Shown here piece after piece: positions 33,234 through 62,732 of a stretch of 64,000 bases of DNA. Below the pieces are notes generated by a model that had not been told where the DNA came from, made no database searches, and saw only the letters and a list, made by a program, of their open reading frames with translations. Every line of letters begins with the position of its first letter. The stretch's first letter is position 1. Origin of the DNA: Euglena gracilis (lineage: Eukaryota); NCBI GenBank assembly GCA_039621445.1, contig CP154954.1, positions 41,347,572 through 41,411,571 on the forward strand, given 5' to 3'. The position numbers and the translations under genes were made by a program.

Positions 33234-33596
<363 letters not shown>

Positions 33597-33674
33597 ACGT
33601 GACCCCCCCTGTTTGTCACCCCCCCCAATAGTCCACAATTAGGGGGGGGTTACCCCCCACAATTAGGGGGGGGG

Positions 33675-35564
33675 GGTTTGAATAGTGCTGAGCTCTTTAT
33701 AAGCGCACACCCACCCCTTCATTGACCCCTCCATACATACCGGCCCACTCCATGGAGCTCTTTTGCCTGAAATCCATGTGATTTGTGCCAGAAACAGGGC
33801 GCCGGTGGGTCGAAAAACACTCATTTTCGGCTCGAAAACAGTTTTTCCGGGTCCGGGAGGCCCAAAAACATTGTTTTGGTCCAAAAAAAATGTTTCGATT
33901 TTTTTCGACTTTTTTGACCGGGTTTGACTCAAAGTCAATGGGTCGGCGGCCCAAAACGGGGCGCTAGCGGGCCGAAAACCGCTCGTTTCTGGCTCAAAAA
34001 CAGTTTTTCCGGGTCTGGGAGGCCAAAAAACATCGTTTCGGGCAAAATTTTTTTTTCGATTTTTCGACTTTTTTTTGACCCGGTTTGGACCCAAAGTCAA
34101 TGTGACGGCGGTCCAAAACGGGGCGCCGGCGGGTCGAAAAACGCTCGTTTTCGGCTGGAAAACAGTTTTTCTGGGTCCGGGAGGCCAAAAAACATCGTTT
34201 CGGGCAAAAAAAATTTTTCGGTTTTTTTCGAGTCAATGAGTCGGCGGCCCAAAACGGGGCGCTGGCGGGTCGAAAAACGCTCATTTTCGGCTCAAAAACA
34301 GTTTTTCTGGGTCCGGGAGGCCAATAAACATCGTTTCGGGCAATTTTTTTTCGATTTTTTTTCGACTTTTTTGGCCAAAAATGGCCAAGTGGAACAGAGG
34401 GAAAAGTGTACAAAATGGCTTGAAACGGCCCAAATTGGCCAAAAAACGCCCGTATCTCGGGCTGGGCAGGGAGTTGCGGGGAAACCAAAATCCCAGTAGA
34501 TAGAGCGTTCCAAGGGCTTCAATTTAGGTCTGTGGACCTTTCCTTTGATTTTGCATCATTTTCGAGAAATTTTGAAAACATTGATTTTTTGACCCCCCAC
34601 CCCCCGAAAACGGCAAAGTCGGACAATGGGAAAAGTGTGCAAAACGGTCATCCGGGTCGAAAACGGCCGTATCTCGGGCTAGGGGGGAGTTGCGGGGGAA
34701 ATCAAAATACTGGTAGATGGGGCGTTCCAAGGGCTTCAAATTAGGTCTCCGGACATTTCCTTTGATTTGGCTTCATTTTGGAGATATTTTGAAAATTGAC
34801 ATTTTTTGGCCGAAATGGCAGAGTCCAAAGGGGGGGGAGGCTTATCCAGGGGGGGGGCGGGCCGATCCTACCCAGTTTGGGCCCCTTCGCGCGTGAATAA
34901 CTCGGGTCTGGCGGGGAGTTGGGGGTCAAACCCAGGTGATTCGGAAACTAGAAATCCAGTCGCATCTGAAAAAAAATTCCGGGAACTGGGCCGGGGTCAT
35001 GGTGATAATCCGCGGTTTTCACGGTCTACCCAGAGGGGGGGGGGGCGGGGGAAGGGGGGGGGCGGGTCCGACCCCCCACTTCATAGCTGGCACTTCGTTT
35101 AAAACGAAGTCAAAAAAAACAGGTTTTTTAAAAAAAAACATGTTTTTTTTAAAAAAAACAAAAAAAACGCCATTGAGGGTCCAGGGCAAAAAAAAATTTT
35201 GCCTTTAATTTTAGCTTTTTTGCCCATCCTCGGTCAGAGAAAGACACCAAATTTGGGATGTTTCAAGTTGAAACATCCCAAAATGGCAGAAAAATGCCCT
35301 ATTTTGACCATTCTTGCTGAAGACAACCAAAAGTATTGGTTTTCAAGTCATTTGAGCTAAGATTGGTTCACCCTTGCGATCAAAGGCAAAATTTGGACCA
35401 TCATTTTCCCCTTTGTTTTTTTTTGCCGTTTTTTTTGCCCGTTTTTTTTAATAAAAAACAAAAAAAACGTTTTTTTTAAAAAAAACAAAAAAAACGCCAG
35501 CTATGCCCCACTTTTCCCTGGTGGTGAGCTTCGCTATTACTCTAAAGAGATAAGAGCTCAGCGA
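33675..35564 (-). mobile_element. Non-autonomous Helitron2-like element, copy 1 (~3.5 satellite units; 3' tip missing)
   Basis: 5'-TCGCTGAGCTCTT with hairpin on the minus strand; subterminal AAGAGCTCAGC; collinear with copy 3. Confidence 0.65.
35082..35505. mobile_element. hAT-type MITE (CATAG ends) inserted in Helitron-like copy 1
   Basis: TIR CATAGCTGGC / GCCAGCTATG; perfect TSD CCCCACTT. Confidence 0.9.
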
Positions 35565-36779
35565 CCAGGGTGTGACGTAGAGCTGAGCTCTTTGGGAGAC
35601 CACCCCAGCCCGGCCCGGCGGCCCGGCCCCCAGCGGCCCGGCGGCCCGGCCCGGCCGGCGGCCCGGCTGGCGGGTCGAAAAACGCTCATTTTCGGCTCAA
35701 AAACAGGTTTTACGGGTCCTGGAGGCCAAAAAACATTGTTCTGGGCAAAAAATTTTTTTTCGATTTTTTCGACTTTTTTGGCCCGGTTTTGACCCAAAGT
35801 CAATGTTGGTGGCCCAAAACGGGGCGGTGGAGGGTCGAAAAACGCTCATTTTTGGGTCGAAAACACTTTTTTCGGGTCCGGGAGGTCACAAAGCATGGTT
35901 TTGGGCAAAAAATTTTTTTTCGATTTTTTTCGACTTTTTGACCCAAAAATGGCCAAGTCCGGCCAGGGGGGGGGGCGGGTCGGAAAATTTTTTTTCGCCC
36001 AAAAACACTTTTTTTGATGTTCTGAAGTGAAAAAAAGTGTTTTTGAGCGAAAAAAATTTTTCAAAATTTTGGGTCCCCACCTGCCACCCGACCCTCCTCG
36101 CCCAGGACCCCAGCAGGAGTCCCCGAATACCCAAAACTGGCCCAAAATCGCACAACCAGACCCCGGGAACCCCATAAAACGGTCAACACCCCCCCCTAAA
36201 CCTAATGATTGACCCCCTGGTTTGGGTCCCAACTCCCCGTCTAGCCCGACATATGGCCAATTTACGGTTTCGGGCCCCGAATGGGCCCGAAATGGCCAAA
36301 ACTGGCCAAACTGGCCCAAAACCCCAAAACGGGCGTATCTCGGGCAAGGAGTTGGCCCAAACCGCGCATACCGATCGATCGGGCGTCCCAAAGTTGTGGA
36401 ATGACGTCCTCTTTACTTTTTTTCAACTCCGCAGCGTTTTCGAGGTATTTTGAAATTTTCGATTTTTTGACCCCAAAATCACCCTGCAATTTTCCCGGAA
36501 AAAAAACGGTAGACAACTTTTTTGCTCGGGCCATATCTCCGGACTGGCGGGGAGTTGCGGGTAACCGAAAGGCTCTGGAGAAACTAGGGATCCTCCCCTA
36601 ACCTATAGGCTATTCACTTTGAGGGCCCGGAAATCCACACATCGATAATCCTCGGGTGCCCGGACCTACCCAGGGGGGCGGGGGGGCGGGGGGGGGGGCG
36701 GGGGGGCGGGGGGGTCCGACCCCCCCGTCGCCGGGGTGGTAAGCTTCGCTCTTACTCTAAAGAGATAAGAGCTCAGCGA
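35565..36779 (-). mobile_element. Non-autonomous Helitron2-like element, copy 2 (~2 satellite units; diverged subfamily)
   Basis: On the minus strand it begins TCGCTGAGCTCTT and ends AAGAGCTCAGC-TCTACGTCACACC-CTGG. Confidence 0.65.
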
Positions 36780-39700
36780 CCAGGTTTTGAATAGTGCTGA
36801 GCTCTTAATAAGCGCGCACCCACCCCTTCATTGACCCCTCCATACATACTGGCACACCACATGGAGCTCTGTTGACTGAAATTCATGTGTTTGTGCCAGA
36901 AACATGGCGCTGGCGGGTCGAAAAACGCTCGTTTTCGGCTCAAAACCAGTTTTTCCGGGTCCGGGAGGCCCAAAAACATCGTTTCGGGCAAAAAAAATTT
37001 TTTTGATTTTTTTCGACTTTTTTGACCCGGTTTTGACCCAAAGTCAATGGGTCGGCGGCCCAAAACGGGGCGCTGGCGGGTCGAAAAACGCTCGTTTTCG
37101 GCTCAAAAACAGTTTTTCTGGGTCCGGGAGGCCCAAAAACATCGTTTCGGGCAAAAAATTTTTTTTTGATTTTTTTCGACTTTTTTGACCCGGTTTTGAC
37201 CCAAAGTCAATGGGTCGGCGGCCCAAAACGGGGCGCTGGCAGGTCGAAAAACGCTCGTTTTCGGCTCAAAAACAGTTTTTCTGGGTCCGGGAGGCCAAAA
37301 ACATCGTTTCGGGCAAAAAAAATTTTTGCGATTTTTTTTGGACTTTTTTGACCCGGTTTTGACCCAAAGTCAATGGGTCGGCGGCCCAAAACGGGGCGCT
37401 GGCGGGTCGAAAAACGCTCGTTTTCGGCTCAAAAACAGTTTTTCCGGGTCCGGGAGGCCAAAAAACATCGTTTCGGGCAAAAAAAATTTTTTTCGATTTT
37501 TTTCGACTTTTTGACCCGGTTTTGACCCAAAGTCAATGGGGCGGCGGCCCAAAACGGGGCGCTGGCGGGTCGAAAAACGCTCGTTTTCGGCTCAAAAACA
37601 GTTTTTCCGGGTCCGGGAGGCCAAAAAAACATCGTTTCGGGCAAAAAATTTTTTTTCGATTTTTTTCGACTTTTTTGACCCGGTTTTGACCCAAAGTCAA
37701 TGGGTCGGCGGCCCAAAACGGGGCGCTGGCGGGTCGAAAAACGCTCGTTTTCGGCTCAAAAACTGTTTTTCCGGGTCCGGGAGGCCAAAAAACATCGTTT
37801 CGGGCAAAAAAATTTTTCGATTTTTTTCGACTTTTTTGACCCGGTTTTGACCCAAAGTCAATGGGTCGGCGGCCCAAAACGGGGCGCTGGCGGGTCGAAA
37901 AACGCTCGTTTTCGGCTCAAAAACAGTTTTTCCGGGTCCGGGAGGCCAAAAAACATCGTTTCGGGCAAAAAAAATTTTTTTTTGATTTTTTTTGACTTTT
38001 TTGACCCGGTTTTGACCCCAAGTCAATTGGTTTGCGGGCCAAACCTGGGCGCTGGCGGGTGGAAAAAAAAATCGCTCGTTTTCGGCTCAAAAACAGTTTT
38101 TCCGGGTCCGGGAGGCCAAAAAACATCGTTTCGGGCAAAAAAAATTTTTTCGATTTTTTTCGACTTTTTTGACCCGGTTTTGACCCAAAGTCAATGGGTC
38201 GGCGGCCCAAAACGGGGCGCTGGCGGGTCGAAAAACGCTCGTTTTCGGCTCAAAAACAGTTTTTCCGGGTCCGGGAGGCCAAAAAACATCGTTTCGAGCA
38301 AAAAAAAATTTTTCGATTTTTTTCGACTTTTTTGACCCGGTTTTGACCCAAAGTCAATGGGTCGGCGGCCCAAAACGGGGCGCTGGCGGGTCGAAAAACG
38401 CTCGTTTTCGGCTCAAAAACAGTTTTTCTGGGTCCGGGAGGCCAAAAAACATCGTTTCGGGCAAAAAAAAATTTTTCGATTTTTTTCGACTTTTTTGACC
38501 CGGTTTTGACCCAAAGTCAATGGGTCGGCGGCCCAAAACGGGGCGCTGGCGGGTCGAAAAACGCTCGTTTTCGGCTCAAAAACAGGTTTTCCGGGTCCGG
38601 GAGGCCAAAAAGCATCGTTTCGGGCAAAAAAAAATTTTTTTTTGCTTTTTTTCGACTTTTTTGACCCGGTTTTGACCCGAAGTCAATGGGTTGGCGGCCC
38701 AAAACGGGGCGCTGGTGGGTCGAAAAACGCTCGATTTCGGCGAAAAACAAGTTTTTCCGGGTCCAGGAGACCTAAAAACATCGTTTCGGGCAAAAAAAAA
38801 TTTTTTCGATTTTTTTCGACTTTTTTGACCCGGTTTTGACCCAAAGTCAATGGGTCGGCGGCCCAAAACGGGGCGCTGGCGGGTCGAAAAACGCTCGTTT
38901 TCGGCTCAAAAACAGTTTTTCCGGGTCCGGGAGGCCAAAAAACATCGTTTCGGGCAAAAAATTTTTTTTGATTTTTTTCGACTTTTTTACCCGGTTTTTA
39001 CCCAAAGTCAATGGGTCGGCGGCCCAAAACGGGGCGGTGGCGGGGCGAAAATCGCTGTTTTTCTGCTCAAAAAAAGGTTTTTCGGGGTCGGGGAGCCAAA
39101 AAGCAACCTTTCGGGGAAAAAAAATTTTTTTTTGATTTTTTTCGACTTTTTTGACCCGGTTTTGACCCGAAGTCAATGGGTCGGCGGCCCAAAACGGGGC
39201 GGCTGGCGGGTCGACGCTCGTTTTCGGCTAAAAAACAGTTTTTCCGGGTCCGGGAGGCCAAAAAACATCGTTTCGGGAAAAAAAAATTTTTTTTGTTTTT
39301 TTCGACTTTTTTGACCCGGTTTTGACCCAAAGTCAATGGGTCGGCGGCCCAAAACGGGGCGCTGGCGGGTCGAAAAACGCTCGTTTTCGGCTCAAAAACA
39401 GTTTTTCCGGGTCCGGGAGGCCAAAAAACATCGTTTCGGGCAAAAAAAAAATTTTTTTTTGATTTTTTTCGACTTTTTTGACCCGGTTTTGACCCAAAGT
39501 CAATGGGTCGGCGGCCCAAAACGGGGCGCTGGCGGGTCGAAAAACGCTCGTTTTCGGCTCAAAAACAGTTTTTCCGGGTCCGGGAGGCCAAAAAACATCG
39601 TTTCGGGCAAAAAAATTTTTTTGATTTTTTTCGACTTTTTTGACCCGGTTTTGACCCAAAGTCAATGGGTCGGCGGCCCAAAACGGGGCGCTGGCGGGTC

Positions 39701-42700
39701 GAAAAACGCTCGTTTTCGGCTCAAAAACAGTTTTTCCGGGTCCGGGAGGCCAAAAAACATCGTTTCGGGCAAAAAAATTTTTTTGATTTTTTTCGACTTT
39801 TTTGACCCGGTTTTGACCCAAAGTCAATGGGTCGGCGGCCCAAAACGGGGCGCTGGCGGGTCGAAAAACGCTCGTTTTCGGCTCAAAAACAGTTTTTCCG
39901 GGTCCGGGAGGCCCAAAAACATCGTTTCGGGCAAAAAAATTTTTTTGATTTTTTTCGACTTTTTTGACCCGGTTTTGACCCAAAGTCAATGGGTCGGCGG
40001 CCCAAAACGGGGCGCTGGCGGGTCGAAAAACGCTCGTTTTCGGCTCAAAAACAGTTTTTCCGGGTCCGGGAGGCCAAAAAACATCGTTTCGGGCAAAAAA
40101 ATTTTTTTTGATTTTTTTCGACTTTTTTGACCCGGTTTTGACCCAAAGTCAATGGGTCGGCGGCCCAAAACGGGGCGCTGGCGGGTCGAAAAAAAGCTCG
40201 TTTTCGGCTCAAAAACAGTTTTTCCGGGTCCGGGAGGCCAAAAAACATCGTTTCGGGCAAAAAAAATTTTTTTTGATTTTTTTCGACTTTTTTGACCCGG
40301 TTTTGACCCAAAGTCAATGGGTCGGCGGCCCAAAACGGGGCGCTGGCGGGTCGAAAAACGCTCGTTTTCGGCTCAAAAACAGTTTTCCTGGGTCCGGGAG
40401 GCCAAAAAACATCGTTTCGGGCAAAAAAAATTTTTTTTGATTTTTTTCGACTTTTTTGACCCGGTTTTGACCCAAAGTCAATGGGTCGGCGGCCCAAAAC
40501 GGGGCGCTGGCGGGTCGAAAAACGCTCGTTTTCGGCTCAAAAACAGTTTTTCCGGGTCCGGGAGGCCCAAAAAACATCGTTTCGGGCAAAAAAATTTTTT
40601 TGATTTTTTTCGACTTTTTTGACCCGGTTTTGACCCAAAGTCAATGGGTCGGCGGCCCAAAACGGGGCGCTGGCGGGTCGAAAAACGCTCGTTTTCGGCT
40701 CAAAAACAGTTTTTCCGGGTCCGGGAGGCCAAAAAACATCGTTTCGGGCAAAAAAAAATTTTTTCGATTTTTTTCGACTTTTTTGACCCGGTTTTGACCC
40801 AAAGTCAATGGGTCGGCGGCCCAAAACGGGGCGCTGGCGGGTCGAAAAACGCTCGTTTTCGGCTCAAAAACAGTTTTTCCGGGTCCGGGAGGCCAAAAAA
40901 CATCGTTTGGGGCAAAAAAAATTTTTTTGATTTTTTTCGACTTTTTTGACCCGGTTTTGACCCAAAGTCAATGGGTCGGCGGCCCAAAACGGGGCGCTGG
41001 CGGGTCGAAAAACGCTCGTTTTCGGCTCAAAAACAGTTTTTCCGGGTCCGGGAGGCCAAAAAACATCGTTTCGGGCAAAAAAAATTTTTTTGATTTTTTT
41101 CGACTTTTTTGACCCGGTTTTGACCCAAAGTCAATGGGTCGGCGGCCCAAAACGGGGCGCTGGCGGGTCGAAAAACGCTCGTTTTCGGCTCAAAAACAGT
41201 TTTTCCGGGTCCGGGAGGCCAAAAAACATCGTTTCGGGCAAAAAAATTTTTTTGATTTTTTTCGACTTTTTTGACCCGGTTTTGACCCAAAGTCAATGGG
41301 TCGGCGGCCCAAAACGGGGCGCTGGCGGGTCGAAAAACGCTCGTTTTCGGCTCAAAAACAGTTTTTCCGGGTCCGGGAGGCCAAAAACATCGTTTCGGGC
41401 AAAAAAAATTTTTTCGATTTTTTTCGACTTTTTTGACGCGGTTTTGACCCAAAGTCAATGGGTCGGCGGGCCAAAACGGGGCCGCGGCGGGTCGAAAAAC
41501 GCTCGTTTTCGGCTCAAAAACAGTTTTTCCGGGTCCGGGAGGCCCAAAAACATCGTTTCGGGCAAAAAATTTTTTGATTTTTTTCGACTTTTTTGACCCG
41601 GTTTTGACCCAAAGTCAATGGGTCGGCGGCCCAAACGGGGCGCAGGTGGGGTCGAAAAACGCTCGTTTTCGGCTCAAAAAACAGTTTTTCCGGGTCCGTG
41701 AGGCCAAAAAACATCGTTTCGGGCAAAGAAAATTTTTTTTGATTTTTTTCGACTTTTTGACCCGGTTTTGACCCAAAGTCAATGGGTCGGCGGCCCAAAA
41801 CGGGGCGCTGGCGGGTCGAAAAACGCTCGTTTTCGGCTACAAAACAATTTTTCGGGTCCGGGAGGCCAAAAAACATCGTTTCGGGCAAAAAATTTTTTGA
41901 TTTTTTTCGACTTTTTTGACCCGGTTTTGACCCAAAGTCAATGGGTCGGCGGCCCAAAACGGGGCGCTGGCGGGTCGAAAAACGCTCGTTTTCGGCTCAA
42001 AAACAGTTTTTCCGGGTCCGGGAGGCCAAAAAAACATCGTTTCGGGCAAAAAAATTTTTTCGATTTTTTTCGACTTTTTCGACCCGGTTTTGACCCAAAG
42101 TCAATGGGTCGGCGGCCCAAAACGGGGCGCTGGCGGGTCGAAAAACGCTCGTTTTCGGCTCAAAAACAGTTTTTCCGGGTCCGGGAGGCCAAAAAACATC
42201 GTTTCGGGCAAAAAAATTTTTTTGATTTTTTTCGACTTTTTGACCCGGTTTTGACCCAAAGTCAATGGGTCGGCGGCCCAAAACGGGGCGCTGGCGGGTC
42301 GAAAAACGCTCGTTTTCGGCTCAAAAACAGTTTTTCCGGGTCCGGGAGGCCAAAAAACATCGTTTCGGGCAAAAAAATTTTTTTGATTTTTTTCGACTTT
42401 TTTGACCCGGTTTTGACCCAAAGTCAATGGGTCGGCGGCCCAAAACGGGGCGCTGGCGGGTCGAAAAACGCTCGTTTTCGGCTCAAAAACAGTTTTTCCG
42501 GGTCCGGGAGGCCAAAAAACATCGTTTCGGGCAAAATTTTTTTTGATTTTTTTCGACTTTTTTGACCCGGTTTTGACCCAAAGTCAATGGGTCGGCGGCC
42601 CAAAACGGGGCGCTGGCGGGTCGAAAAACGCTCGTTTTCGGCTCAAAAACAGTTTTTCCGGGTCCGGGAGGCCAAAAAACATCGTTTCGGGCAAAAAATT

Positions 42701-45700
42701 TTTTCGATTTTTTTCGACTTTTTTGACCCGGTTTTGACCCAAAGTCAATGGGTCGGCGGCCCAAAACGGGGCGCTGGCGGGTCGAAAAACGCTCGTTTTC
42801 GGCTCAAAAACAGTTTTTCCGGGTCCGGGAGGCCAAAAAACATCGTTTCGGGCAAAAAAAAATTTTTTTTTTTGCTTTTTTTCGACTTTTTCGACGCGTT
42901 TTTGACCCAAAATCAATGGGTCGGCGGCCCAAAACGGGGCGCTGGCGGGTCGAAAAACGCTCGTTTTCGGCTCAAAAACAGTTTTTCCGGGTCCGGGAGG
43001 CCAAAAAACATCGTTTCGGGCAAAAAAAAATTTTTTGATTTTTTTCGACTTTTTTGACCCGGTTTTGACCCAAAGTCAATGGGTCGGCGGCCCAAAACGG
43101 GGCGCTGGCGGGTCGAAAAACGCTCGTTTTCGGCTCAAAAACAGTTTTTCCGGGTCCGGGAGGCCAAAAAACATCGTTTCGGGCAAAAAAATTTTTTTTG
43201 ATTTTTTTCGACTTTTTTGACCCGGTTTTGACCCAAAGTCAATGGGTCGGCGGCCCAAAACGGGGCGCTGGCGGGTCGAAAAACGCTCGTTTTCGGCTCA
43301 AAAACAGTTTTTCCGGGTCCGGGAGGCCAAAAAACATCGTTTCGGGCAAAAAATTTTTTTGATTTTTTTCGACTTTTTTGACCCGGTTTTGACCCAAAGT
43401 CAATGGGTCGGCGGCCCAAAACGGGGCGCTGGCGGGTCGAAAAACGCTCGTTTTCGGCTCAAAAACAGTTTTTCCGGGTCCGGGAGGCCAAAAAAACATC
43501 GTTTCGGGCAAAAAAAATTTTTTTTTTTTTTTTCGACTTTTTTGACCCGGTTTTGACCCAAAGTCAATGGGTCGGCGGCCCAAAACGGGGCGCTGGCGGG
43601 TCGAAAAACGCTCGTTTTCGGCTCAAAAACAGTTTTTCCGGGTCCGGGAGGCCAAAAAACATCGTTTCGGGCAAAAAAAAATTTTTTTCGATTTTTTTCG
43701 ACTTTTTTGACCCGGTTTTGACCCAAAGTCAATGGGTCGGCGGCCCAAAACGGGGCGCTGGGCGGGTCGAAAAACGCTCGTTTTCGGCTCAAAAACAGTT
43801 TTTCCGGGTCCGGGAGGCCAAAAAACATCGTTTCGGGCAAAAAAATTTTTTTTCGATTTTTTTCGACTTTTTTGACCCGGTTTTGACCCAAAGTCAATGG
43901 GTCGGCGGCCCAAAACGGGGCGCTGGCGGGTCGAAAAACGCTCGTTTTCGGCTCAAAAACAGTTTTTCCGGGTCCGGGAGGCCAAAAAACATCGTTTCGG
44001 GCAAAAAAAATTTTTTTTTGATTTTTTTCGACTTTTTTGACCCGGTTTTGACCCAAAGTCAATGGGTCGGCGGCCCAAAACGGGGCGCTGGCGGGTCGAA
44101 AAACGCTCGTTTTCGGCTCAAAAACAGTTTTTCCGGGTCCGGGAGGCCAAAAAACATCGTTTCGGGCAACAAAAAACAAACAAAAAACAATGTTTTTTCG
44201 ATTTTTTTCGACTTTTTTGACCCGGTTTTGACCCAAAGTCAATGGGTCGGCGGCCCAAAACGGGGCGCTGGCGGGTCGAAAAACGCTCGTTTTCGGCTCA
44301 AAAACAGTTTTTCCGGGTCCGGGAGGCCAAAAAAACATCGTTTCGGGCAAAAAATTTTTTTTGATTTTTTTCGACTTTTTTGACCCGGTTTTGACCCAAA
44401 GTCAATGGGTCGGCGGCCCAAAACGGGGCGCTGGCGGGTCGAAAAACGCTCGTTTTCGGCTCAAAAACAGTTTTTCCGGGTCCGGGAGGCCAAAAAACAT
44501 CGTTTCGGGCAAAAAAAAATTTTTTCGATTTTTTTCGACTTTTTTGACCCGGTTTTGACCCAAAGTCAATGGGTCGGCGGCCCAAAACGGGGCGCTGGCG
44601 GGTCGAAAAACGCTCGTTTTCGGCTCAAAAACAGTTTTTCCGGGTCCGGGAGGCCAAAAAACATCGTTTCGGGCAAAAAATTTTTTTCGATTTTTTTCGA
44701 CTTTTTTGACCCGGTTTTGACCCAAAGTCAATGGGTCGGCGGCCCAAAACGGGGCGCTGGCGGGTCGAAAAACGCTCGTTTTCGGCTCAAAAACAGTTTT
44801 TCCGGGGTCCGGGAGGCCAAAAAAACATCGTTTCGGAAAAAAAATTTTTTTTCGATTTTTTTTCGACTTTTTTGACCCGGTTTTGACCCAAAGTCAATGG
44901 GTCGGCGGCCCAAAACGGGGCGCTGGCGGGTCGAAAAACGCTCGTTTTCGGCTCAAAAACAGTTTTTCCGGGTCCGGGAGGCCAAAAACATCGTTTCGGG
45001 CAAAAAATTTTTTTTTGATTTTTTTCGACTTTTTTGACCCGGTTTTGACCCAAAGTCAATGGGTCGGCGGCCCAAAACGGGGCGCTGGCGGGTCGAAAAA
45101 CGCTCGTTTTCGGCTCAAAAACAGTTTTTCCGGGTCCGGGAGGCCAAAAAACATCGTTTCGGGCAAAAAATTTTTTTTGATTTTTTTCGACTTTTTTGAC
45201 CCGGTTTTGACCCAAAGTCAATGGGTCGGCGGCCCAAAACGGGGCGCTGGCGGGTCGAAAAACGCTCGTTTTCGGCTCAAAAACAGTTTTTCCGGGTCCG
45301 GGAGGCCAAAAAACATCGTTTCGGGCAAAAAAAATTTTTGATTTTTTTCGACTTTTTTGACCCGGTTTTGACCCAAAGTCAATGGGTCGGCGGCCCAAAA
45401 CGGGGCGCTGGCGGGTCGAAAAACGCTCGTTTTCGGCTCAAAAACAGTTTTTCCGGGTCCGGGAGGCCAAAAAACATCGTTTCGGGCAAAAAAATTTTTT
45501 TTGATTTTTTTCGACTTTTTTGACCCGGTTTTGACCCAAAGTCAATGGGTCGGCGGCCCAAAACGGGGCGCTGGCGGGTCGAAAAACGCTCGTTTTCGGC
45601 TCAAAAACAGTTTTTCCGGGTCCGGGAGGCCAAAAAACATCGTTTCGGGCAAAAATTTTTTTTGATTTTTTTCGACTTTTTTGACCCGGTTTTGACCCAA

Positions 45701-48700
45701 AGTCAATGGGTCGGCGGCCCAAAACGGGGCGCTGGCGGGTCGAAAAACGCTCGTTTTCGGCTCAAAAACAGTTTTTCCGGGTCCGGGAGGCCCAAAAACA
45801 TCGTTTCGGGCAAAAAATTTTTTTGATTTTTTTCGACTTTTTTGACCCGGTTTTGACCCAAAGTCAATGGGTCGGCGGCCCAAAACGGGGCGCTGGCGGG
45901 TCGAAAAACGCTCGTTTTCGGCTCAAAAACAGTTTTTCCGGGTCCGGGAGGCCCAAAAAACATCGTTTCGGGCAAAAAAAAATTTGATTTTTTTCGACTT
46001 TTTTGACCCGGTTTTGACCCAAAGTCAATGGGTCGGCGGCCCAAAACGGGGCGCTGGCGGGTCGAAAAACGCTCGTTTTCGGCTCAAAAACAGGTTTCCG
46101 GGTCCGGGAGGCCAAAAAAACATCGTTTCGGGCAAAAAATTTTTTTTGATTTTTTTCGACTTTTTTGACCCGGTTTTGACCCAAAGTCAATGGGTCGGCG
46201 GCCCAAAACGGGGCGCTGGCGGGTCGAAAAACGCTCGTTTTCGGCTCAAAAACAGTTTTTCCGGGTCCGGGAGGCCCAAAAAACATCGTTTCGGGCAAAA
46301 ATTTTTTTTTGATTTTTTTCGACTTTTTTGACCCGGTTTTGACCCAAAGTCAATGGGTCGGCGGCCCAAAACGGGGCGCTGGCGGGTCGAAAAACGCTCG
46401 TTTTCGGCTCAAAAACAGTTTTTCCGGGTCCGGGAGGCCAAAAAACATCGTTTCGGGCAAAAAAAATTTTTGATTTTTTTCGACTTTTTTGACCCGGTTT
46501 TGACCCAAAGTCAATGGGTCGGCGGCCCAAAACGGGGCGCTGGCGGGTCGAAAAACGCTCGTTTTTGGCTCAAAAACAAGTTTTCCGGGTCCGGGAGGCC
46601 AAAAAACATCGTTTCGGGCAAAAAATATTTGATTTTTTTCGACTTTTTTGACCCGGTTTTGACCCAAAGTCAATGGGTCGGCGGCCCAAAACGGGGCGCT
46701 GGCGGGTCGAAAAACGCTCGTTTTCGGCTCAAAAACAGTTTTTCCGGGTCCGGGAGGCCAAAAAACATCGTTTCGGGCAAAAAATTTTTTTGATTTTTTT
46801 CGACTTTTTGACCCGGTTTTGACCCAAAGTCAATGGGTCGGCGGCCCAAAACGGGGCGCTGGCGGGTCGAAAAACGCTCGTTTTCGGCTCAAAAACAGTT
46901 TTTCCGGGTCCGGGAGGCCAAAAACATCGTTTCGGGCAAAAAAATTTTTTTTGATTTTTTTCGACTTTTTGACCCGGTTTTGACCCAAAGTCAATGGGTC
47001 GGCGGCCCAAAACGGGGCGCTGGCGGGTCGAAAAACGCTCGTTTTCGGCTCAAAAACAGTTTTTCCGGGTCCGGGAGGCCAAAAAACATCGTTTCCGATT
47101 TTTTTTTTTTTTTTTAGACTTTTTTGACCCGGTTTTGACCCAAAGTCAATGGGTCGGCGGCCCAAAACGGGGCGCTGGCGGGTCGAAAAACGCTCGTTTT
47201 CGGCTCAAAAACAGTTTTTCCGGGTCCGGGAGGCCAAAAAACATCGTTTCGGGCAAAAAAAATTTTTTGATTTTTTTCGACTTTTTTGACCCGGTTTTGA
47301 CCCAAAGTCAATGGGTCGGCGGCCCAAAACGGGGCGCTGGCGGGTCGAAAAACGCTCGTTTTCGGCTCAAAAACAGTTTTTCCGGGTCCGGGAGGCCCAA
47401 AAACATCGTTTCGGGCAAAAATTTTTTTGATTTTTTTCGACTTTTTGACCCGGTTTTGACCCAAAGTCAATGGGTCGGCGGCCCAAAACGGGGCGCTGGC
47501 GGGTCGAAAAACGCTCGTTTTCGGCTCAAAAACAGGTTTTCCGGGTCCGGGAGGCCAAAAACATCGTTTCGGGCAAAAAAAATTTTTTTGATTTTTTTCG
47601 ACTTTTTTGACCCGGTTTTGACCCAAAGTCAATGGGTCGGCGGCCCAAAACGGGGCGCTGGCGGGTCGAAAAACGCTCGTTTTCGGCTCAAAAACAGTTT
47701 TTCCGGGTCCGGGAGGCCAAAAAACATCGTTTCGGGCAAAAAAAAATTTTTTTTGATTTTTTTCAACTTTTTTGACTCGATTTTAACCACAAGTCAATGG
47801 GTCGGCGGCCCAAAACGGGGCGCTGGCGGGTCGAAAAACACTCATTTTCGGCTCAAAAAACAGTTTTTCCGGGTCCGGGAGGCCAAAAAAACATCGTTTC
47901 GGGCAAAAAAAATTTTTTTTGATTTTTTTCGACTTTTTTGACCCGGTTTTGACCCAAAGTCAATGGGTCGGCGGCCCAAAACGGGGCGCTGGCGGGTCGA
48001 AAAACGCTCGTTTTCGGCTCAAAAACAGTTTTTCCGGGTCCGGGAGGCCAAAAACCATCGTTTCGGGCAAAAAAAATTTGATTTTTTTCGACTTTTTTGA
48101 CCCGGTTTTGACCCAAAGTCAATGGGTCGGCGGCCCAAAACGGGGCGCTGGCGGGTCGAAAAACGCTCGTTTTCGGCTCAAAAACAGTTTTTCCGGGTCC
48201 GGGAGGCCAAAAAACATCGTTTCGGGCAAAAAAAAATTTTTTTGATTTTTTTCGACTTTTTTGACCCGGTTTTGACCCAAAGTCAATGGGTCGGCGGCCC
48301 AAAACGGGGCGCCGGCGGGTCGAAAAACGCTCGTTTTCGGCTCAAAAAACCGGTTTTTCCGGGTCCGGGAGGCCAAAAAACATCGTTTCGGGCAAAAAAA
48401 ATTTGATTTTTTTCGACTTTTTTGACCCGGTTTTGACCCAAAGTCAATGGGTCGGCGGCCCAAAACGGGGCGCTGGCGGGTCGAAAAACGCTCGTTTTCG
48501 GCTCAAAAACAGTTTTTCCGGGTCCGGGAGGCCCAAAAACATCGTTTCGGGCAAAAAAAATTTTGATTTTTTCGACGACCCAACCCAAAAGTCAATGGCC
48601 CCAAACTTGGCGGGTCGAAAAACGCTCGTTTTCGGCTCAAAAAAAGTTGTTATGGGGCCGGGAGGCGCAAAAACATCACAAAAAAAAATTTTTTGATCTT

Positions 48701-51700
48701 TTTGACGGTTTTGAAAAGTCAATGGGAAAAAAACTTCAAAAAATCGTTTTCGCTCAAAAACAGTTTTTCATCCCAAAAAAAAAAAAAAATTTTCGTTTTC
48801 AAAAATAAAAATTTTTTTTTCTCGACCAAAGTCAATGGGTCCCAAAACGCTGCCCAAAAAAACGTTTTCCTCAAAAAAATCCCTCAAAAAAAAATTTCGA
48901 TTTTTTCGACTTTTGACCTCCCAAAATCGAAAAATTGGTTTGGTCCAAAAATTTCGGCCCAAAAAAAAACGCTCAAAAAAAAAACAGTTTCCTCCGGGCC
49001 CCAAAAAATCGTTTCGGGCAAAAAATTTTTTTTTTTTTTTGACCCGACCCAAAAATCGGCGGCCCAAAACGGGGCTGGTGGGTCAAAAAATTCTTTTCGG
49101 CTCAAAAACAGGGTCCGGGAGGCCAAAAACGCTCCAAAAAAAAATTTTCGACTTTTTTCCCGGTTTGACCTCTTCCCCTTCGGGCCCGTCAAAAAAAAAC
49201 CTTTTGACCAAAACTCAAAAACTTTTCGACCCCAAAAACGCTCCCAAAACTTCGGCAAAACTCGTTTTCGGCTCCCAGTTTTTCCTCCCCAACATCGTTT
49301 CAAAAAACTTTTTTTGATTTTTCGACTTTTTGACCCGGTTTTGACCCAAAGTCAATGGGTCGGCGGCCCAAAACGGGGCGCTGGCGGGTCGAAAAACGCT
49401 CGTTTTCGGCTCAAAAACAGTTTTTCCGGGTCCGGGAGGCCAAAAAACATCGTTTCGGGCAAAAAAATTTTTTTTTGATTTTTTTCGACTTTTTTGACCC
49501 GGTTTTGACCCAAAGTCAATGGGTCGGCGGCCCAAAACGGGGCACTTGGCGGGTCGAAAAACGCTCGTTTTCGGCTCAAAAACAGTTTTCCGGGTCCGGG
49601 AGGCCAAACAAAAAACATCGTTTCGGGCAAAAAAAATTTTTTTGATTTTTTTCGACTTTTTTGACCCGGTTTTGACCCAAAGTCAATGGGTCGGCGGCCC
49701 AAAACGGGGCGCTGGCGGGTAAAAAACGCTCATTTTCGGCTCAAAAACAGTTTTTCCGGGTCCGGGAGGCCAAAAAACATCGTTTCGGGCAAAAAAATTT
49801 TTTTTTGATTTTTTTCGACTTTTTTGACCCGGTTTTGACCCAAAGTCAATGGGTCGGCGGCCCAAAACGGGGCGCTGGCGGGTCGAAAAACGCTCGTTTT
49901 CGGCTCAAAAACAGTTTTTCCGGGTCCGGGAGGCCAAAAAACATCGTTTCGGGCAAAAAAATTTTTTTTGATTTTTTTCGACTTTTTTGACCCGGTTTTG
50001 ACCCAAAGTCAATGGGTCGGCGGCCCAAAACGGGGCGCGCTGGCGGGTCGAAAAACGCTCGTTTTCGGCTCAAAAACAGTTTTTCCGGGTCCGGGAGGCC
50101 AAAAAACATCGTTTCGGGCAAAAAAATTTTTTTGATTTTTTTCGACTTTTTGACCCGGTTTTGACCCAAAGTCAATGGGTCGGCGGCCCAAAACGGGGCG
50201 CTGGCGGGTCGAAAAACGCTCGTTTTCGGCTCAAAAACAGTTTTTCCGGGTCCGGGAGGCCAAAAAACATCGTTTCGGGAAAAAAATTTTTTTTTGATTT
50301 TTTTCGACTTTTTTGACCCGGTTTTGACCCAAAGTCAATGGGTCGGCGGCCCAAAACGGGGCGCTGGCGGGTCGAAAAACGCTCGTTTTCGGCTCAAAAA
50401 CAGTTTTTCCGGGTCCGGGAGGCCAAAAAAACTTGGTTTGGGGAAAAAAATTTTTTTGATTTTTTTCGACTTTTTTGACCCGGTTTTGACCCAAAGTCAA
50501 TGGGTCGGCGGCCCAAAACGGGGCGCTGGCGGGTCGAAAAACGCTCGTTTTCGGCTCAAAAACAGTTTTTTCCGTCTCCCGATGCCCAAAAACATCTTTT
50601 CGGGCAAAATTTTTTTTTTGATTTTTTTCGACTTTTTTTACCCGGTTTTGACCCAAAATCAATTGGTTCGCCGCCCAAAACCGGGCGCTTGCCGGTCCAA
50701 AAAACGCTCGTTTTCGGCTCAAAAACAGTTTTTCCGGGTCCGGGAAGCCAAAAAAACATCGTTTCGGGCAAAAAAATTTTTTTTTGATTTTTTTCGACTT
50801 TTTTGACCCGGTTTTGACCCAAAGTCAATGGGTCGGCGGCCCAAAACGGGGCGCTGGCGGGTCGAAAAACGCTCGTTTTCGGCTCAAAAACAGTTTTTCC
50901 GGGTCCGGGAGGCCAAAAAACATCGTTTCGGCAAAAAAAAATTTTTTTTGATTTTTTTCGACTTTTTTGACCCGGTTTTGACCCAAAGTCAATGGGTCGG
51001 CGGCCCAAAACGGGGCGCTGGCGGGTCGAAAAACGCTCGTTTTCGGCTCAAAAAACAGTTTTTCCGGGTCCGGGAGGCCAAAAAACATCGTTTCGGGCAA
51101 AAAAAATTTTTTTTGATTTTTTTCGACTTTTTTGACCCGGTTTTGACCCAAAGTCAATGGGTCGGCGGCCCAAAACGGGGCGCTGGCGGGTCGAAAAACG
51201 CTCGTTTTCGGCTCAAAAACAGTTTTTCCGGGTCCGGGAGGCCAAAAAACATCGTTTCGGGCAAAAAAAAATTTTTTGATTTTTTTCGACTTTTTGACCC
51301 GGTTTTGACCCAAAGTCAATGGGTCGGCGGCCCAAAACGGGGCGCTGGCGGGTCGAAAAACGCTCGTTTTCGGCTCAAAAACAGTTTTTCCGGGTCCGGG
51401 AGGCCAAAAAACATCGTTTCGGGCAAAAAAATTTTTTTGATTTTTTTCGACTTTTTTGACCCGGTTTTGACCCAAAGTCAATGGGTCGGCGGCCCAAAAC
51501 GGGGCGCTGGCGGGTCGAAAAACGCTCGTTTTCGGCTCAAAAACAGTTTTTCCGGGTCCGGGAGGCCAAAAAGCAATCTTTCGAGCAAAAAAAATTTTTT
51601 GAAATTTTTTCGACTTTTTTGACCCGGTTTTGACCCAAAGTCAATGGGTCGGCGGCCCAAAACGGGGCGCTGGCGGGTCGAAAAACGCTCGTTTTCGGCT

Positions 51701-54700
51701 CAAAAACAGTTTTTCCGGGTCCGGGAGGCCAAAAAACATCGTTTCGGGCAAAAAAATTTTTTTTGATTTTTTTCGACTTTTTTGACCCGGTTTTGACCCA
51801 AAGTCAATGGGTCGGCGGCCCAAAACGGGGCGCTGGCGGGTCGCGCTCTTTTTCTGCTCAAAAACAGTTTTTCCTTGTCCGGGAGGCCAAAAAATATCGT
51901 TTCGGGCAAAAAAAATTTTTTCGATTTTTTTCGACTTTTTTGACCCGGTTTTGACCCAAAGTCAATGGGTCGGCGGCCCAAAACGGGGCGCTGGCGGTCG
52001 AAAAACGCTCGTTTTCGGCTCAAAAACAGTTTTTCCGGGTCCGGGAGGCCAAAAAAACATCGTTTCGGGCAAAAAAAAATTTTTTTTGATTTTTTTCGAC
52101 TTTTTTGACCCGGTTTTGACCCAAAGTCAATGGGTCGGCGGCCCAAAACGGGGCGCTGGCGGGTCGAAAAACGCTCGTTTTCGGCTCAAAAACAGTTTTT
52201 CCGGGTCCGGGAGGCCAAAAAAACATCGTTTCGGGCAAAAATTTTTTTTTGATTTTTTCGACTTTTTTGACCCGGTTTTGACCCAAAGTCAATGGGTCGG
52301 CGGCCCAAAACGGGGCGCTGGCGGGTCGAAAAACGCTCGTTTTGGGATCAAAAACAGGTTTTCCAGGTCCGGGAGGCCAAAAACATCGTTTCGGGCAAAA
52401 AAAATTTTTTTTGATTTTTTTCGACTTTTTTGACCCGGTTTTGACCCAAAGTCAATGGGTCGGCGGCCCAAAACGGGGCGCTGGCGGGTCGAAAAACGCT
52501 CGTTTTCGGCTCAAAAACAGTTTTTCCGGGTCCGGGAGGCCAAAAAACATCGTTTCGGGCAAAAAAATTTTTTTTGATTTTTTTCGACTTTTTTGACCCG
52601 GTTTTGACCCAAAGTCAATGGGTCGGCGGCCCAAAACGGGGCGCTGGCGGGTCGAAAAACGCTCGTTTTCCGAAAAAGAACAGTTTTTCCGGGGCCGGGA
52701 GGCCCAAAAACATCGTTTTGGGCAAAAAAAAATTTTTTGATTTTTTTTCGACTTTTTTGACCCGGTTTTGACCCAAAGTCAATGGGTCGGCGGCCCAAAA
52801 CGGGGCGCTGGCGGGTCGAAAAACGCTCGTTTTCGGCTCAAAAACAGTTTTTCCGGGTCCGGGAGGCCAAAAAACATCGTTTCGGGCAAAAAAAATTTTT
52901 TTTGATTTTTTTCGACTTTTTGACCCGGTTTTGACCCAAAGTCAATGGGTCGGCGGCCCAAAACGGGGCGCTGGCGGGTCGAAAAACGCTCGTTTTCGGC
53001 TCAAAAACAGTTTTTCCGGGTCCGGGAGGCCCAAAAACATCGTTTTGGGCAAAAAAAAAATTTTTTTTGATTTTTTTCGACTTTTTTGACCCGGTTTTGA
53101 TCGAAAGTCAATGGGTCGCGGCCCAAAAGGAGGCGCTGGCAGGTCGAAAAACGCTCGTTTTCGGCTCAAAAACAGTTTTTCCGGGTCCGGGAGGCCAAAA
53201 AACATCGTTTCGGGCAAAAAAAATTTTTTTTGATTTTTTTCGACTTTTTTGACCCGGTTTTGACCCAAAGTCAATGGGTCGGCGGCCCAAAACGGGGCGC
53301 TGGCGGGTCGAAAAACGCTCGTTTTCGGCTCAAAAACAGTTTTTCCGGGTCCGGGAGGCCAAAAAACATCGTTTCGGGCAAAAGATTTTTTTCGACTTTT
53401 TGACCCGGTTTTGACCCAAAGTCAATGGGTCGGCGGCCCAAAACGGGGCGCTGGCGGGTCGAAAAACGCTCGTTTTCGGCTCAAAAACAGTTTTTCCGGG
53501 TCCGGGAGGCCAAAAAACATCGTTTCGGGCAAAAAAAAATTTTTTTGATTTTTTTCGACTTTTTTGACCCGGTTTTGACCCAAAGTCAATGGGTCGGCGG
53601 CCCAAAACGGGGCGCTGGCGGGTCGAAAAACGCTCGTTTTCGGCTCAAAAAAAACTTTTTCCGGTCCGGGGGGGCCAAAAAACATCGTTTCGGGCAAAAA
53701 AATTTTTTTTGATTTTTTTCGACTTTTTTGACCCGGTTTTGACCCAAAGTCAATGGGTCGGCGGCCCAAAACGGGGCGCTGGCGGGTCGAAAAACGCTCG
53801 TTTTCGGCTCAAAAAACAGTTTTTCCGGGTCCGGGAGGCCAAAAAACATCGTTTCGGGCAAAAAAATTTTTTTGATTTTTTTCGACTTTTTTGACCCGGT
53901 TTTGACCCAAAGTCAATGGGTCGGCGGCCCAAAACGGGGCGCTGGCGGGTCGAAAAACGCTCGTTTTCGGCTCAAAAACAGTTTTTCCGGGTCCGGGAGG
54001 CCAAAAAACATCGTTTCGGGCAAAAATTTTTTTTGATTTTTTTTGGCATTTCGACCCGGTTTTGACCCAAAGTCAATGGGTCGGCGGCCCAAAACGGGGC
54101 GCTGGCGGGTCGAAAAACGCTCGTTTTCGGCTCAAAAAACAGTTTTTCCGGGTCCGGGAGGCCAAAAAACATCGTTTCGGGCAAAAAAATTTTTTTTGAT
54201 TTTTTTCGACTTTTTCTACCCGGTTTTGACCCAAAGTCAATGGGTCGGGAAAAAAAAAAAAGGGGCGAAGGGCGTCGAAAACGGGGCGCTGGCTGGCTGG
54301 TCGAAAAAAAAAAACAACGCTCGTTTTCGGCTCAAAAAACAGTTTTTCCGGGTCCGGGAGGCCAAAAAACATCGTTTCGGGCAAAAAAAATTTTTTTGAT
54401 TTTTTTCGACTTTTTTGACCCGGTTTTGACCCAAAGTCAATGGGTCGGCGGCCCAAAACGGGGCGCTGGCGGGTCAAAAAACGCTCGTTTTCGGCTCAAA
54501 AACAGTTTTTCCGGGTCCGGGAGGCCAAAAAACATCGTTTCGGGCAAAAAAAATTTTTTTTTGATTTTTTTCGACTTTTTTGACCCGGTTTTGACCCAAA
54601 GTCAATGGGTCGGCGGCCCAAAACGGGGCGCTGGCGGGTCGAAAAACGCTCGTTTTCGGCTCAAAAACAGTTTTTCCGGGTCCGGGAGGCCAAAAAACAT

Positions 54701-56483
54701 CGTTTCGGGCAAAAAAAATTTTTTCGATTTTTTTCGACTTTTTTGACCCGGTTTTGACCCAAAGTCAATGGGTCGGCTACCCAAAACGGGGAGATCGACG
54801 GTCTAAAACCGCTCGTTTTCGGCTCAAAAACAGTTTTTCTGGGTCCGGGAGGCCAAAAAACATCGTTTCGGGCAAAAAAAATTTTTTTTTGATTTTTTTC
54901 GACTTTTTTGACCCGGTTTTGACCCAAAGTCAATGGGTCGGCGGCCCAAAACGGGGCGCTGGCGGGTCGAAAAACGCTCGTTTTCGGCTCAAACTTTTTT
55001 TTTTTTTCCTTTTTTCCGGGTCCGGGGGAGGCCAAAAAACATCGTTTCGGGCAAAAAAAAATTTTTTGATTTTTTTCGACTTTTTTGACCCGGTTTTGAC
55101 CCAAAGTCAATGGGTCGGCGGCCCAAAACGGGGCGCTGGCGGGTCGAAAAACGCTCGTTTTCGGCTCAAAAACAGTTTTTCCGGGTCCGGGAGGCCAAAA
55201 AACATCGTTTCGGGCAAAAAAATATTTTTTGATTTTTTTCGACTTTTTTGACCCGGTTTTGACCCAAAGTCAATGGGTCGGCGGCCCAAAACGGGGCGCT
55301 GGCGGGTCGAAAAACGCTCGTTTTCGGCTCAAAAACAGTTTTTCCGGGTCCGGGAGGCCAAAAAACATCGTTTCGGGCAAAAAAATTTTTTTTGATTTTT
55401 TTCGACTTTTTTGACCCGGTTTTGACCCAAAATCAATGGGTCGGCGGCCCAAAACGGGGCGCTGGCGGGTCGAAAAACGCTCGTTTTCGGCTCAAAAACA
55501 GTTTTTCCGGGTCCGGGAGGCCAAAAAACATCGTTTCGGGCAAAAAATTTTTTTTTGATTTTTTTCGACTTTTTCGACCCGGTTTTGACCCAAAATCAAT
55601 GGGTCGGCGGCCCAAAACGGGGCGCTGGCGGGTCGAAAATCGCTCGTTTTCGGCTCAAAAACAGTTTTTCCGGGTCCGGGAGGCCAAAAAACATCGTTTC
55701 GGGCAAAAAAAATTTTTTCGATTTTTTTCGACTTTTTTGGCCGAAAACGGCTAAGTCGAACAGAGGGAAAAGTGTCCAAAATGGCCTGAAATGGCCAAAT
55801 TGGCCAAAAAAACGCCTGTATCTCGGGCTGGGCGGGGAGTTGCGGGGAAACCAAAATCCCAGTAGATAGAGCGTTCCAAGGGCTTCAATTTAGGTCTCTG
55901 GACATTTCCTTTGATTTTGCACCATTTTCGAGAAATTTTGAAAACATCCATTTTTTGACCCCCCACCCCCCGAAAACGGCTAAGTCGAACAGAGGGAAAA
56001 GTGTACAAAACGGCCAGCTGCGCCGAAAACGGCCGTATCTCGGGCCAGGCGGGGAGTTGGGGGGAAATCAAAATACCGGTGGATGGGGCGTTCCAAGGGC
56101 TTCAAATTAGGTCTCCGGACATTTCCTTTGATTTGGCTTCATTTTGGAGATATTTTGAAAATTGACATTTTTTGGCAGTCCAAGGGGGGGGGGGCTCATC
56201 CAGGGGGGGCGGGTAAATCCTACCGAGTTTGGACCCCTTCGCGCGTGAATAACTCGGGCCTGGCGGGGAGTTGGGGGTCAAACCCAGGTGATTCGGAAAC
56301 TAGGAATCCAGTCGCTCGCGACTGAAAAAAAAAATTCCGGGAACCGGGCCGGGATCATGGTGATAATCCGTCGGTTCTCCTGGTGGCCCCGACCCGGGGG
56401 GGGGGGAGGGGGGGGGGCGAGGGGGGGGGATTTCGACGGTGGTAAGCTTCGCTCTTACCCATAAAGGGATAAGAGCTCAGCGA
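36780..56483 (-). mobile_element. Non-autonomous Helitron2-like element, copy 3, containing the ~19 kb satellite array
   Basis: On the minus strand A|TCGCTGAGCTCTT...AAGAGCTCAGC-ACTATTCAAAAC-CTGG; both arms (36780-36905, 55740-56483) are homologous to copy 1. Confidence 0.7.
36906..55740. repeat. Satellite array, ~163-bp monomer, roughly 115 copies
   Basis: Consensus GGCGCTGGCGGGTCGAAAAACGCTCGTTTTCGGCTCAAAAACAGTTTTTCCGGGTCCGGGAGGCCAAAAAACATCGTTTCGGGCAAAAAAATTTTTTTGATTTTTTTCGACTTTTTTGACCCGGTTTTGACCCAAAGTCAATGGGTCGGCGGCCCAAAACGG; variation is mostly in homopolymer length; copy number is length divided by 163. Confidence 0.97.
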
Positions 56484-56813: not shown

Positions 56814-57020
56814 TAACAACAGCAGCAGCAACAGCAGCAGCAGCAACAACAACAACAACAACAACAAAGACTGCCTGTTTCCGAATCTATACACATGCAT
56901 GCATCATAAAACCCGCACATCCATCCATCCATCCATCCATCCATCCATCCATCCATCCATCCATCCATCCATCCATCCATCCATCCATCCATCCATCCAT
57001 CCATCCATCCATCCATCCAT
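56814..57020. repeat. (CAG/CAA)n at 56814-56867 and (ATCC)n at 56919-57020
   Basis: Direct reading. Confidence 0.95.

Positions 57021-57413: not shown

Positions 57414-62732
<5,319 letters not shown>

Follow-up and report, generated by a model that had tools for sequence, protein, structure and literature searches.

The 64,000-nt stretch of Euglena gracilis DNA presented above (the window) carries, at 33675-56483 on its minus strand, three head-to-tail units that are, on balance, probably non-autonomous Helitron-like (rolling-circle) elements with the HINE/DINE-1-type build of the Helitron2/Helentron group. The units belong to one very abundant family in two subfamilies, and each encloses a 163-bp tandem repeat. 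Tandem Repeats Finder (TRF) and BLAST count about 115 of these repeats in copy 3, 1.8 in copy 2, and 3.5 in copy 1, close to the figures of about 115, 2, and 3.5 given in the original prediction for this stretch. Unit ends and motifs are all read on the minus strand. The units and their 5' features are listed below.

36780..56483, minus strand: copy 3, 19,704 nt, made up of a head, the 163-bp array, and a 3' tail
35565..36779, minus strand: copy 2, 1,215 nt, of a separate subfamily
33675..35564, minus strand: copy 1, 1,890 nt, of the same subfamily as copy 3
56471..56481, minus strand: 5' asymmetric inverted repeat of copy 3, GCTGAGCTCTT, 2 nt inside the 5' TC
36767-36777, minus strand: 5' inverted repeat of copy 2, part of its 5' hairpin
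35552-35562, minus strand: 5' repeat of copy 1
56446..56481, minus strand: 5' hairpin of copy 3, stems of 3 + 7 + 3 bp with inner stem CCC/GGG, -9.7 kcal/mol, z -2.76
36743..36777, minus strand: 5' hairpin of copy 2, 60-nt end at -16.3 kcal/mol, z -4.46, 0 of 200 shuffles as good

The original prediction described the ends of these units accurately. Every unit opens with TC followed by GCTGAGCTCTT, with 5' ends at 56483 (copy 3), 36779 (copy 2), and 35564 (copy 1). Copies 3 and 2 close with the inverted copy AAGAGCTCAGC, followed by 12 and 13 nt, respectively, and a CTGG (36780-36783 and 35565-35568). Each CTGG directly adjoins the TC of the next unit, and the resulting exact CTGG|TC joints at 36780/36779 and 35565/35564 fit a rolling-circle element. 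The 11-nt inverted repeat matches at 11 of 11 positions and lies 2 nt from the 5' end in all three copies. It recurs subterminally at the 3' side of all three (36806-36796, 35592-35582, and 33697-33687 in copies 3, 2, and 1); copies 3 and 2 have it 16-17 nt before their 3' end. The 5' TC is thus present in three of three copies and a terminal CTGG, which has the CTRR form of canonical Helitrons, in two of three. With at most one mismatch, the window contains the 11-mer six times, compared with an expectation of 0.26; no shuffled sequence out of 100 had as many, and all six matches are the unit ends described here; allowing two mismatches brought no additional convincing site in the window. The 12-17 nt past the 3' repeat are conserved between copies as well. 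As also predicted, the outermost 5' TC follows an A (56484) and no direct repeat surrounds the composite (flanks ...GGGGCTTTA and CCCCCCCCCCTAATTG...), whose outermost ends bear half-sites where element termini are expected. The composite has no target-site duplication, whereas a miniature inverted-repeat transposable element (MITE) nested in copy 1 has a perfect 8-bp one (AAGTGGGG), a difference that we count in favor of Helitron-like elements.

The ends were then folded as single-stranded DNA and scored (z) against shuffled sequences. A hairpin of 3 + 7 + 3 bp at the 5' ends of copies 3 and 2 takes in part of the 11-nt repeat, so that the 5' repeat pairs downstream into a 5' hairpin as in Helitron2/HLE2. 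The inner stem reads CTC/GAG in copies 2 and 1 versus CCC/GGG in copy 3, amounting to one compensatory change. A 5' hairpin had been predicted for each unit; it folds better than shuffles in copies 3 and 2 but does not stand out in copy 1 (z -1.06), whose stem bears a G>T change. A fold spanning the joint at 36740-36830, in which the 3' and 5' repeats pair, reached -18.1 kcal/mol (z -4.08), and the other joint gave a z of -1.11.

Public sequencing runs extend these observations beyond the window. The region 33600-37000 was found in part in 20 public runs from 15 studies, 19 of them under one organism label, and contigs of four runs were placed on 33600-36950 at a likeness of at least 80%. In three runs of the same organism, 509,703 of 45,288,885, 357,230 of 26,531,592, and 102,233 of 8,963,259 contig records matched at this level, and the element family is therefore extremely abundant in the organism; summed per-contig depth was not used as a copy number, and the uncovered stretch 35056-35167 was not interpreted. 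A run under another organism label (X20, share 0.22) gave 4,791 matches among 8,291,173 records, mostly less than 95% alike, from which no conclusion was drawn. The best-supported rows comprised 24 of 8,797 loose ends and 15 of 2,957 joints. Among them, the best-supported loose end in each of the three runs lay at 36781 (336, 313, and 267 contigs), 2 nt beyond the proposed 5' TC of copy 2. Sequences past 36781 agree poorly (0.41-0.46), which points to many different contexts; they are C-rich on the plus strand, that is, G-rich upstream of the TC. Together, this supports a 5' boundary common to the family that coincides with the TC or lies no more than 2 nt from it. Furthermore, at least several joints link a copy 2-type tail directly to monomers (e.g., 35618 to 34272 in 4, 11, and 2 contigs), indicating that this type of tail recurs elsewhere in the genome.

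The interiors of the units separate the copies while their ends unite them. Copies 3 and 1 form one subfamily and copy 2 another. By BLAST, copies 3 and 1 share 87-89% identity in their heads (734-1,323 nt aligned) and 89% in their tails (169 nt). Copy 2 shares its first 45 nt with copy 1 at 95.6%. Other features that it has in common with the remaining units are a C-rich block, a head segment with a weak likeness of 67%, some 1.8 monomers, the 3' repeat, and C-CTGG at the very end. Elsewhere, the interior and tail of copy 2 are unlike those of copies 3 and 1. Since copy 2 differs elsewhere yet keeps the 11-nt repeat and the extreme ends, the ends are conserved where the neighboring sequence is not. 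The internal features are as follows.

56396..56429, minus strand: C-rich homopolymer block of copy 3, just past the 5' hairpin, where HINE left flanks have their microsatellite
36673-36714 (copy 2) and about 35030-35062 (copy 1), minus strand: equivalent C-rich blocks
55741..56174, minus strand: two ~215-bp internal units in the head of copy 3, 81.6% mutual identity
36906..55739, minus strand: 163-bp tandem array of copy 3, ~115 units
36780..36905, minus strand: 3' tail of copy 3, with the 3' repeat AAGAGCTCAGC at 36796-36806
35666-35960, minus strand: monomers of copy 2, about 1.8 (BLAST)
35611-35667, minus strand: GC-rich microsatellite of copy 2
33792-34372, minus strand: monomers of copy 1, about 3.5 (TRF)
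33675..35564, minus strand: lesions of copy 1, namely G>T in the stem, loss of the terminal TGG, and the nested MITE
35082..35505, minus strand: MITE of 424 bp, unrelated, inside copy 1, with ends CATAGCTGGC...GCCAGCTATG

From 5' to 3', the element thus presents a subterminal repeat, a nested inverted repeat, a simple-sequence block, central repeats of ~165 bp that are few and variable in number, and a short 3' flank with the second repeat. A Pfam search of seven open reading frames (ORFs) from the elements and the array returned no real family (one sub-threshold chance match, Pilosulin at 19 bits against a cut-off of 25), and the elements have no coding capacity. Searches for tRNAs and for Rfam families at the gathering score likewise found none, with weak hairpin-type matches only. 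One of these concerns a long A/T-run hairpin at 35977-36066 in copy 2, for which sub-threshold matches resembling microRNA precursors (best 35.6 bits against a gathering score of 111) were taken as generic hairpin matches. The MITE of copy 1 contains internal A/T-run inverted repeats, and related pieces lie in the window at 25729-26136 and 29097-29136. An 8-bp target duplication such as its own is typical of hAT-type elements. A partial 215-bp head unit (82% over 161 nt) was also seen in the opposite orientation at 63714-64000 (plus strand), where it is cut off by the window end. A 32-bp tandem repeat (63714-63835) comes before it, and there is no 11-nt end repeat in the vicinity.

In copy 3, TRF delimited repeats of period 163 at 36906-48564 (71.6 copies, 95% matches) and 49302-55739 (39.2 copies, 89%). 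We cut out 105 monomers, 101 of them from copy 3. Most of these 101 are 0.94-1.0 identical to their own consensus, to which the full monomers of copies 1 and 2 show an identity of 0.865-0.915. Mean pairwise identity among copy-3 monomers was 0.942-0.946 at each lag from 1 to 40, and the array therefore has no higher-order periodicity. Because the array is more homogeneous than the elements are among themselves (88%), these values suggest that it was recently expanded or homogenized. Moreover, the phase in which the array meets head and tail is the same for all three copies, which makes expansion inside an element the simplest reading. The original prediction had gone on to see the birth of a satellite here, a claim that exceeds the data, the 163-bp family and the element arms being already hugely abundant in this organism. 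A stretch inside the array, 48565-49301, is degraded and deletion-rich with abrupt edges: five 163-nt chunks at 48508-49322 have identities of 0.65-0.78 with 27-47 deleted positions each, compared with 0.91-0.98 and 0-5 deleted positions for 11 chunks either side. This stretch is likely a product of poorly polished or patched assembly, and the 19-kb length of the array is uncertain for that reason. Derivation of the monomer from the tail or the 215-bp head units was considered and rejected, with alignment scores of 17-18 against shuffle means of 14.6-16.1 and maxima of 24-27.

Several known systems offer a comparison. Xiong et al. reportedly described tandem arrays of canonical Helitrons with rolling-circle amplification in 2016, and Dias et al. 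are said to have reported the emergence of a satellite from DINE-TR1 in 2015. Among the closest are the HINE/DINE-1 elements, whose described build comprises subterminal inverted repeats (subTIRs) 2-4 nt from the 5' end, a nested inverted repeat, and central repeats (PMC4067079, Thomas et al. 2014). The oyster Cg_HINE/pearl elements have a subTIR of 11-12 bp, an inverted repeat of 7-12 bp, a microsatellite, and ~165-bp central repeats averaging 3.6 monomers (PMC7492417). As described there, both groups resemble the Euglena units in having, 2-4 nt inside the 5' end, a subterminal repeat of 11-13 nt in which a short inverted repeat is nested to give a 5' hairpin, followed by a simple-sequence block. 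Further shared traits are central tandem repeats of ~160-180 bp, usually 2-5 in number and found in long satellite arrays too, a second subTIR in a short 3' flank, very high copy number, and the absence of a target-site duplication. Variable central repeats, a simple-sequence block, high copy number, and lack of coding capacity were all found here. Unlike those of the described HINE/DINE-1 elements, the 3' subTIR here is not followed by a palindrome and lies 16-17 nt from the end rather than 38-60 nt as in the mite HINE families (PMC4067079). Further differences are flanks that are neither T-rich nor TT, a C homopolymer as the simple-sequence block, a CTGG 3' end, a GC-rich host, and the lack of a known Helentron partner.

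Helitron2 elements are described with asymmetric terminal inverted repeats (ATIRs) of 8-15 bp, of which the 5' one forms a hairpin and lies within 0-2 bp of the end (PMC3627910). The Euglena units agree with these and with the Fusarium FoHeli elements (PMC5148889) in having a 5' ATIR 0-2 nt from the end, a 5' hairpin, a subterminal 3' ATIR, and a 5' T, and the repeat likewise falls within the 8-18 nt of length and the 0-4 nt from the 5' end given for Helitron2/HLE2 as a whole. Joined ends or tandem copies are reported for Helitrons, Helitron2/FoHeli included, and according to the same account some FoHeli groups also lack the 3' hairpin (PMC5148889). The units depart from the Helitron2 definition in that no hairpin lies downstream of the 3' ATIR and in that its distance from the end is 16-17 nt instead of 20-30 (PMC3627910), or about 20-60 nt for Helitron2/HLE2 as a whole. 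Membership of Helitron2 is ultimately set by the phylogeny of RepHel, and the units here are candidate members by their ends and build. Tandem arrays of canonical Helitrons, as reviewed in PMC12628747, resemble the row in their head-to-tail units, their expansion of internal repeats to satellites, and their TC...CTRR ends; those arrays are made of truncated copies and combine many 5' ends with a single 3' end, whereas here each unit has both ends and the units are of different subfamilies. Among unicellular eukaryotes, the germline Helitrons of Paramecium are ORF-less as well and consist mostly of satellites between left and right terminal sequences (PMC13085455). Unlike the units described here, they end in CCAA, belong to a separate RepHel clade, and are located at chromosome ends (PMC13085455).

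Taken together, the assignment to Helitron2/Helentron made in the original prediction is supported by the asymmetric repeat, the 5' hairpin, the central repeats, and the non-coding nature of the units. The 3' hairpin expected of that group is absent, and the prediction had merged the hallmarks of two groups. As described, TC...CTRR ends and A|T insertion mark canonical Helitrons, and T|T or T|C insertion plus a hairpin after the 3' repeat mark Helitron2/Helentron. The element shows a mix of canonical and Helitron2 traits, with CTGG and a 5' A on one side and the asymmetric repeat and 5' hairpin on the other. The A|T insertion that had been claimed is not supported: it goes back to a single 5' base, the base 3' of the composite is a C, and the 5' flanks of contigs are G-rich.

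A number of observations weigh against Helitron2-type elements and are gathered here. No 3' end folds better than its shuffles (z -0.19, +0.27, and -1.14), and the 16-17 nt after the 3' repeat hold no palindrome, so that the expected Helitron2/HLE2 3' stem-loop is absent; the sole 3' stem is one of 5 bp in copy 2 (AGAGC-TCA-GCTCT), which overlaps the 3' repeat. The composite has an A on its 5' side and a C on its 3' side, with G|T at the joints, and neither T|T nor T|C insertion is seen at any of these positions; moreover, three copies at one locus amount to one independent flank pair, with a damaged 3' end. Copy 1 matches copy 3 up to ACTATTCAAA(A)CC, after which an 11-nt C run replaces TGG; its 3' end is therefore incomplete or damaged, or is placed only to within about 3 nt. 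The commonest 5' neighbor of the TC in contigs is a G run and not an A, which leaves room for a true 5' end located further upstream or for G runs as the target. No evidence for a 3' boundary was found among the best-supported loose ends. Finally, no RepHel with these ends turned up in pattern scans of viral, metagenome, and prokaryote-genome contigs or in a protein search, the host genome not having been searched. The exact-pattern scans, with the 5' end and monomer core, gave 0 matches in these contigs, and the protein search, made for the 3' flanks of other copies with the ORF that spans the copy 3 tail and joint, gave no candidate. Paralogous repeats were also tried as an empty site, but the flanks are short motif-plus-homopolymer repeats that offer no usable paralogue.

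Three other explanations were weighed against this evidence. In the first, the row would at present be no transposon at all but a macrosatellite or complex tandem or segmental repeat built by recombination, with the AAGAGCTCAGC-N18/19-GCTGAGCTCTT palindromes acting as recombination-prone joints and the 19-kb block being one locus of an old genome-wide satellite. All three units do lie at one locus, the junction palindrome at 36740-36830 folds strongly, every part is extremely abundant, the monomers most so, and the surrounding 41 kb are repeat-rich and gene-poor. Simple duplication, however, does not predict that heterologous units such as copy 2, with its different interior and tail, share exact ends. 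In addition, hundreds of contigs lose similarity at the 5' end into unlike sequence, and the outermost ends bear half-sites exactly at the expected element termini. We regard this explanation as unlikely.

A second explanation, which we hold to be rather improbable, is that the units represent some other or undescribed mobile class whose likeness to Helitrons is convergent, either a foldback or terminal inverted repeat (TIR)-type element whose limits are the 11-nt repeats or a retroposed element of the plus strand in which the hairpin is a 3' stem-loop. Elements other than Helitrons can also have inverted repeats and a terminal stem-loop, no RepHel was found in the searches above, and many contig copies have a homopolymer (C on the plus strand) directly past the hairpin end that could be read as a tail. 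Against it stand the absence of a consistent duplication flanking the 11-nt repeats (TC/TC, TC/AC, and TC/AC) and the conservation of the 12-17 nt past the 3' repeat, which are hence part of the element. In addition, none of the three copies in the window is tailed, both plus-strand starts are exact and not truncated, and no tRNA or Rfam family matched at the gathering score. TIR-transposon and short interspersed element (SINE) readings were judged weak.

Least probable of the three is a canonical (Helitron1-type) non-autonomous Helitron, stacked through the A|T recreated at each 5' junction and with the 11-nt repeat as a lineage peculiarity. It would accommodate the TC starts, the CTGG ends, the A at the outer 5' flank, a copy 2 hairpin of canonical type, ending 14 nt short of the 3' terminus, and signs of age that are strongest in the most downstream copy 1 alongside a homogeneous array in copy 3. 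Canonical Helitrons are nevertheless described with a single hairpin 10-12 nt before the 3' end and without terminal inverted repeats or a 5' hairpin, a pattern that the units do not show; the 3' flank is C and not T, the 3' hairpin is convincing in copy 2 only and imperfect in copies 3 and 1, no 3' fold surpasses its shuffles, and contig 5' flanks are most often a G run instead of an A.

If the units are indeed Helitron2-like, a RepHel protein acting in trans would, as in the described family, nick at the 5' TC and peel off the strand 5' to 3'. The exposed 3' copy of the 11-nt repeat would pair with the 5' copy, opening the 5' hairpin, and this pairing would set termination 16-17 nt onward, at C-CTGG; termination by ATIR pairing was suggested by Bao and Jurka (PMC3627910). 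The strand would then be joined CTGG|TC and integrated without target duplication. A single recent concatemer is ruled out as the origin of the row by the presence of two subfamilies and by a difference of ~12% even within one. Repeated insertion at one point, immediately upstream of the 5' T of the resident copy, is the most likely origin. Insertion after an A by an element that starts with T recreates the dinucleotide at its own 5' junction, so that the youngest copy would lie upstream. The visible damage in copy 1 (the MITE, the stem mutation, and the missing TGG) and the homogeneous array in copy 3 fit this order. The central 163-bp repeats would vary in number by unequal exchange or slippage, and those of copy 3 may have recently grown in this way to about 115 homogeneous units.

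The surroundings of the composite are rich in other repeats, and a Pfam search of 13 ORFs outside the elements returned no family. Outside 33675-56483, homopolymer runs of at least 7 nt number 170 for G and 122 for C in ~41 kb, where base composition would predict about 5 and 3. They often occupy fixed positions in other repeat families, such as TTGTGCTTACCAACC+G(n) at 9643, 12201, 12525, 15268, and 20344. Some form palindromes of a C run and a G run, and contigs of independent runs also show such homopolymer runs beside the element. Tetranucleotide microsatellites lie just outside the composite, (AGAT) x 90 at 33236-33596 and (CATC) x 26 at 56918-57020. On the minus strand, a long open frame at 15623-18118 passes through GC-rich tandem repeats of 9, 24, and 27 bp and would encode proline-rich repeats, (PPQPGRPSR)n and (SPSQSPST)n; it has no Pfam match, and its product may be a repetitive wall- or matrix-type protein, or the frame a mere repeat array. 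The end of an ORF at 60986-61630 on the plus strand (...ILRCGG...VTHVIVHD...) resembles a BRCT-type motif by eye; the ORF has no Pfam match.

The transposon-to-satellite route is already known in flies and oysters, and a 2025 review treats internal arrays of Helitrons and Helentrons that expand to satellites as a common example (PMC12628747). Judged against these published descriptions, what is new here is probably the host and the variant mix of terminal features, the mechanism itself being known; a literature search for a Helitron-linked 163-bp satellite returned nothing relevant. It is conceivable, though doubtful, that the units represent a Helitron-like lineage with hybrid ends, in which canonical TC...CTGG termini placed after an A are combined with the asymmetric repeat and 5' hairpin of Helitron2, a 3' hairpin being absent. 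Such a lineage would favor the exact 5' boundary of resident copies, or sites beside G runs, for insertion, and its subfamilies would stack head-to-tail with the youngest upstream; stacking together with repeat expansion could then be the genome's main route to its dominant complex satellite. If confirmed genome-wide, the row would place a transposon-borne repeat in its short form next to its expanded form and would show the precise stacking of unlike family members. Both would be relevant to the seeding and dispersal of satellite DNA by Helitron-type elements in hosts other than animals and plants.

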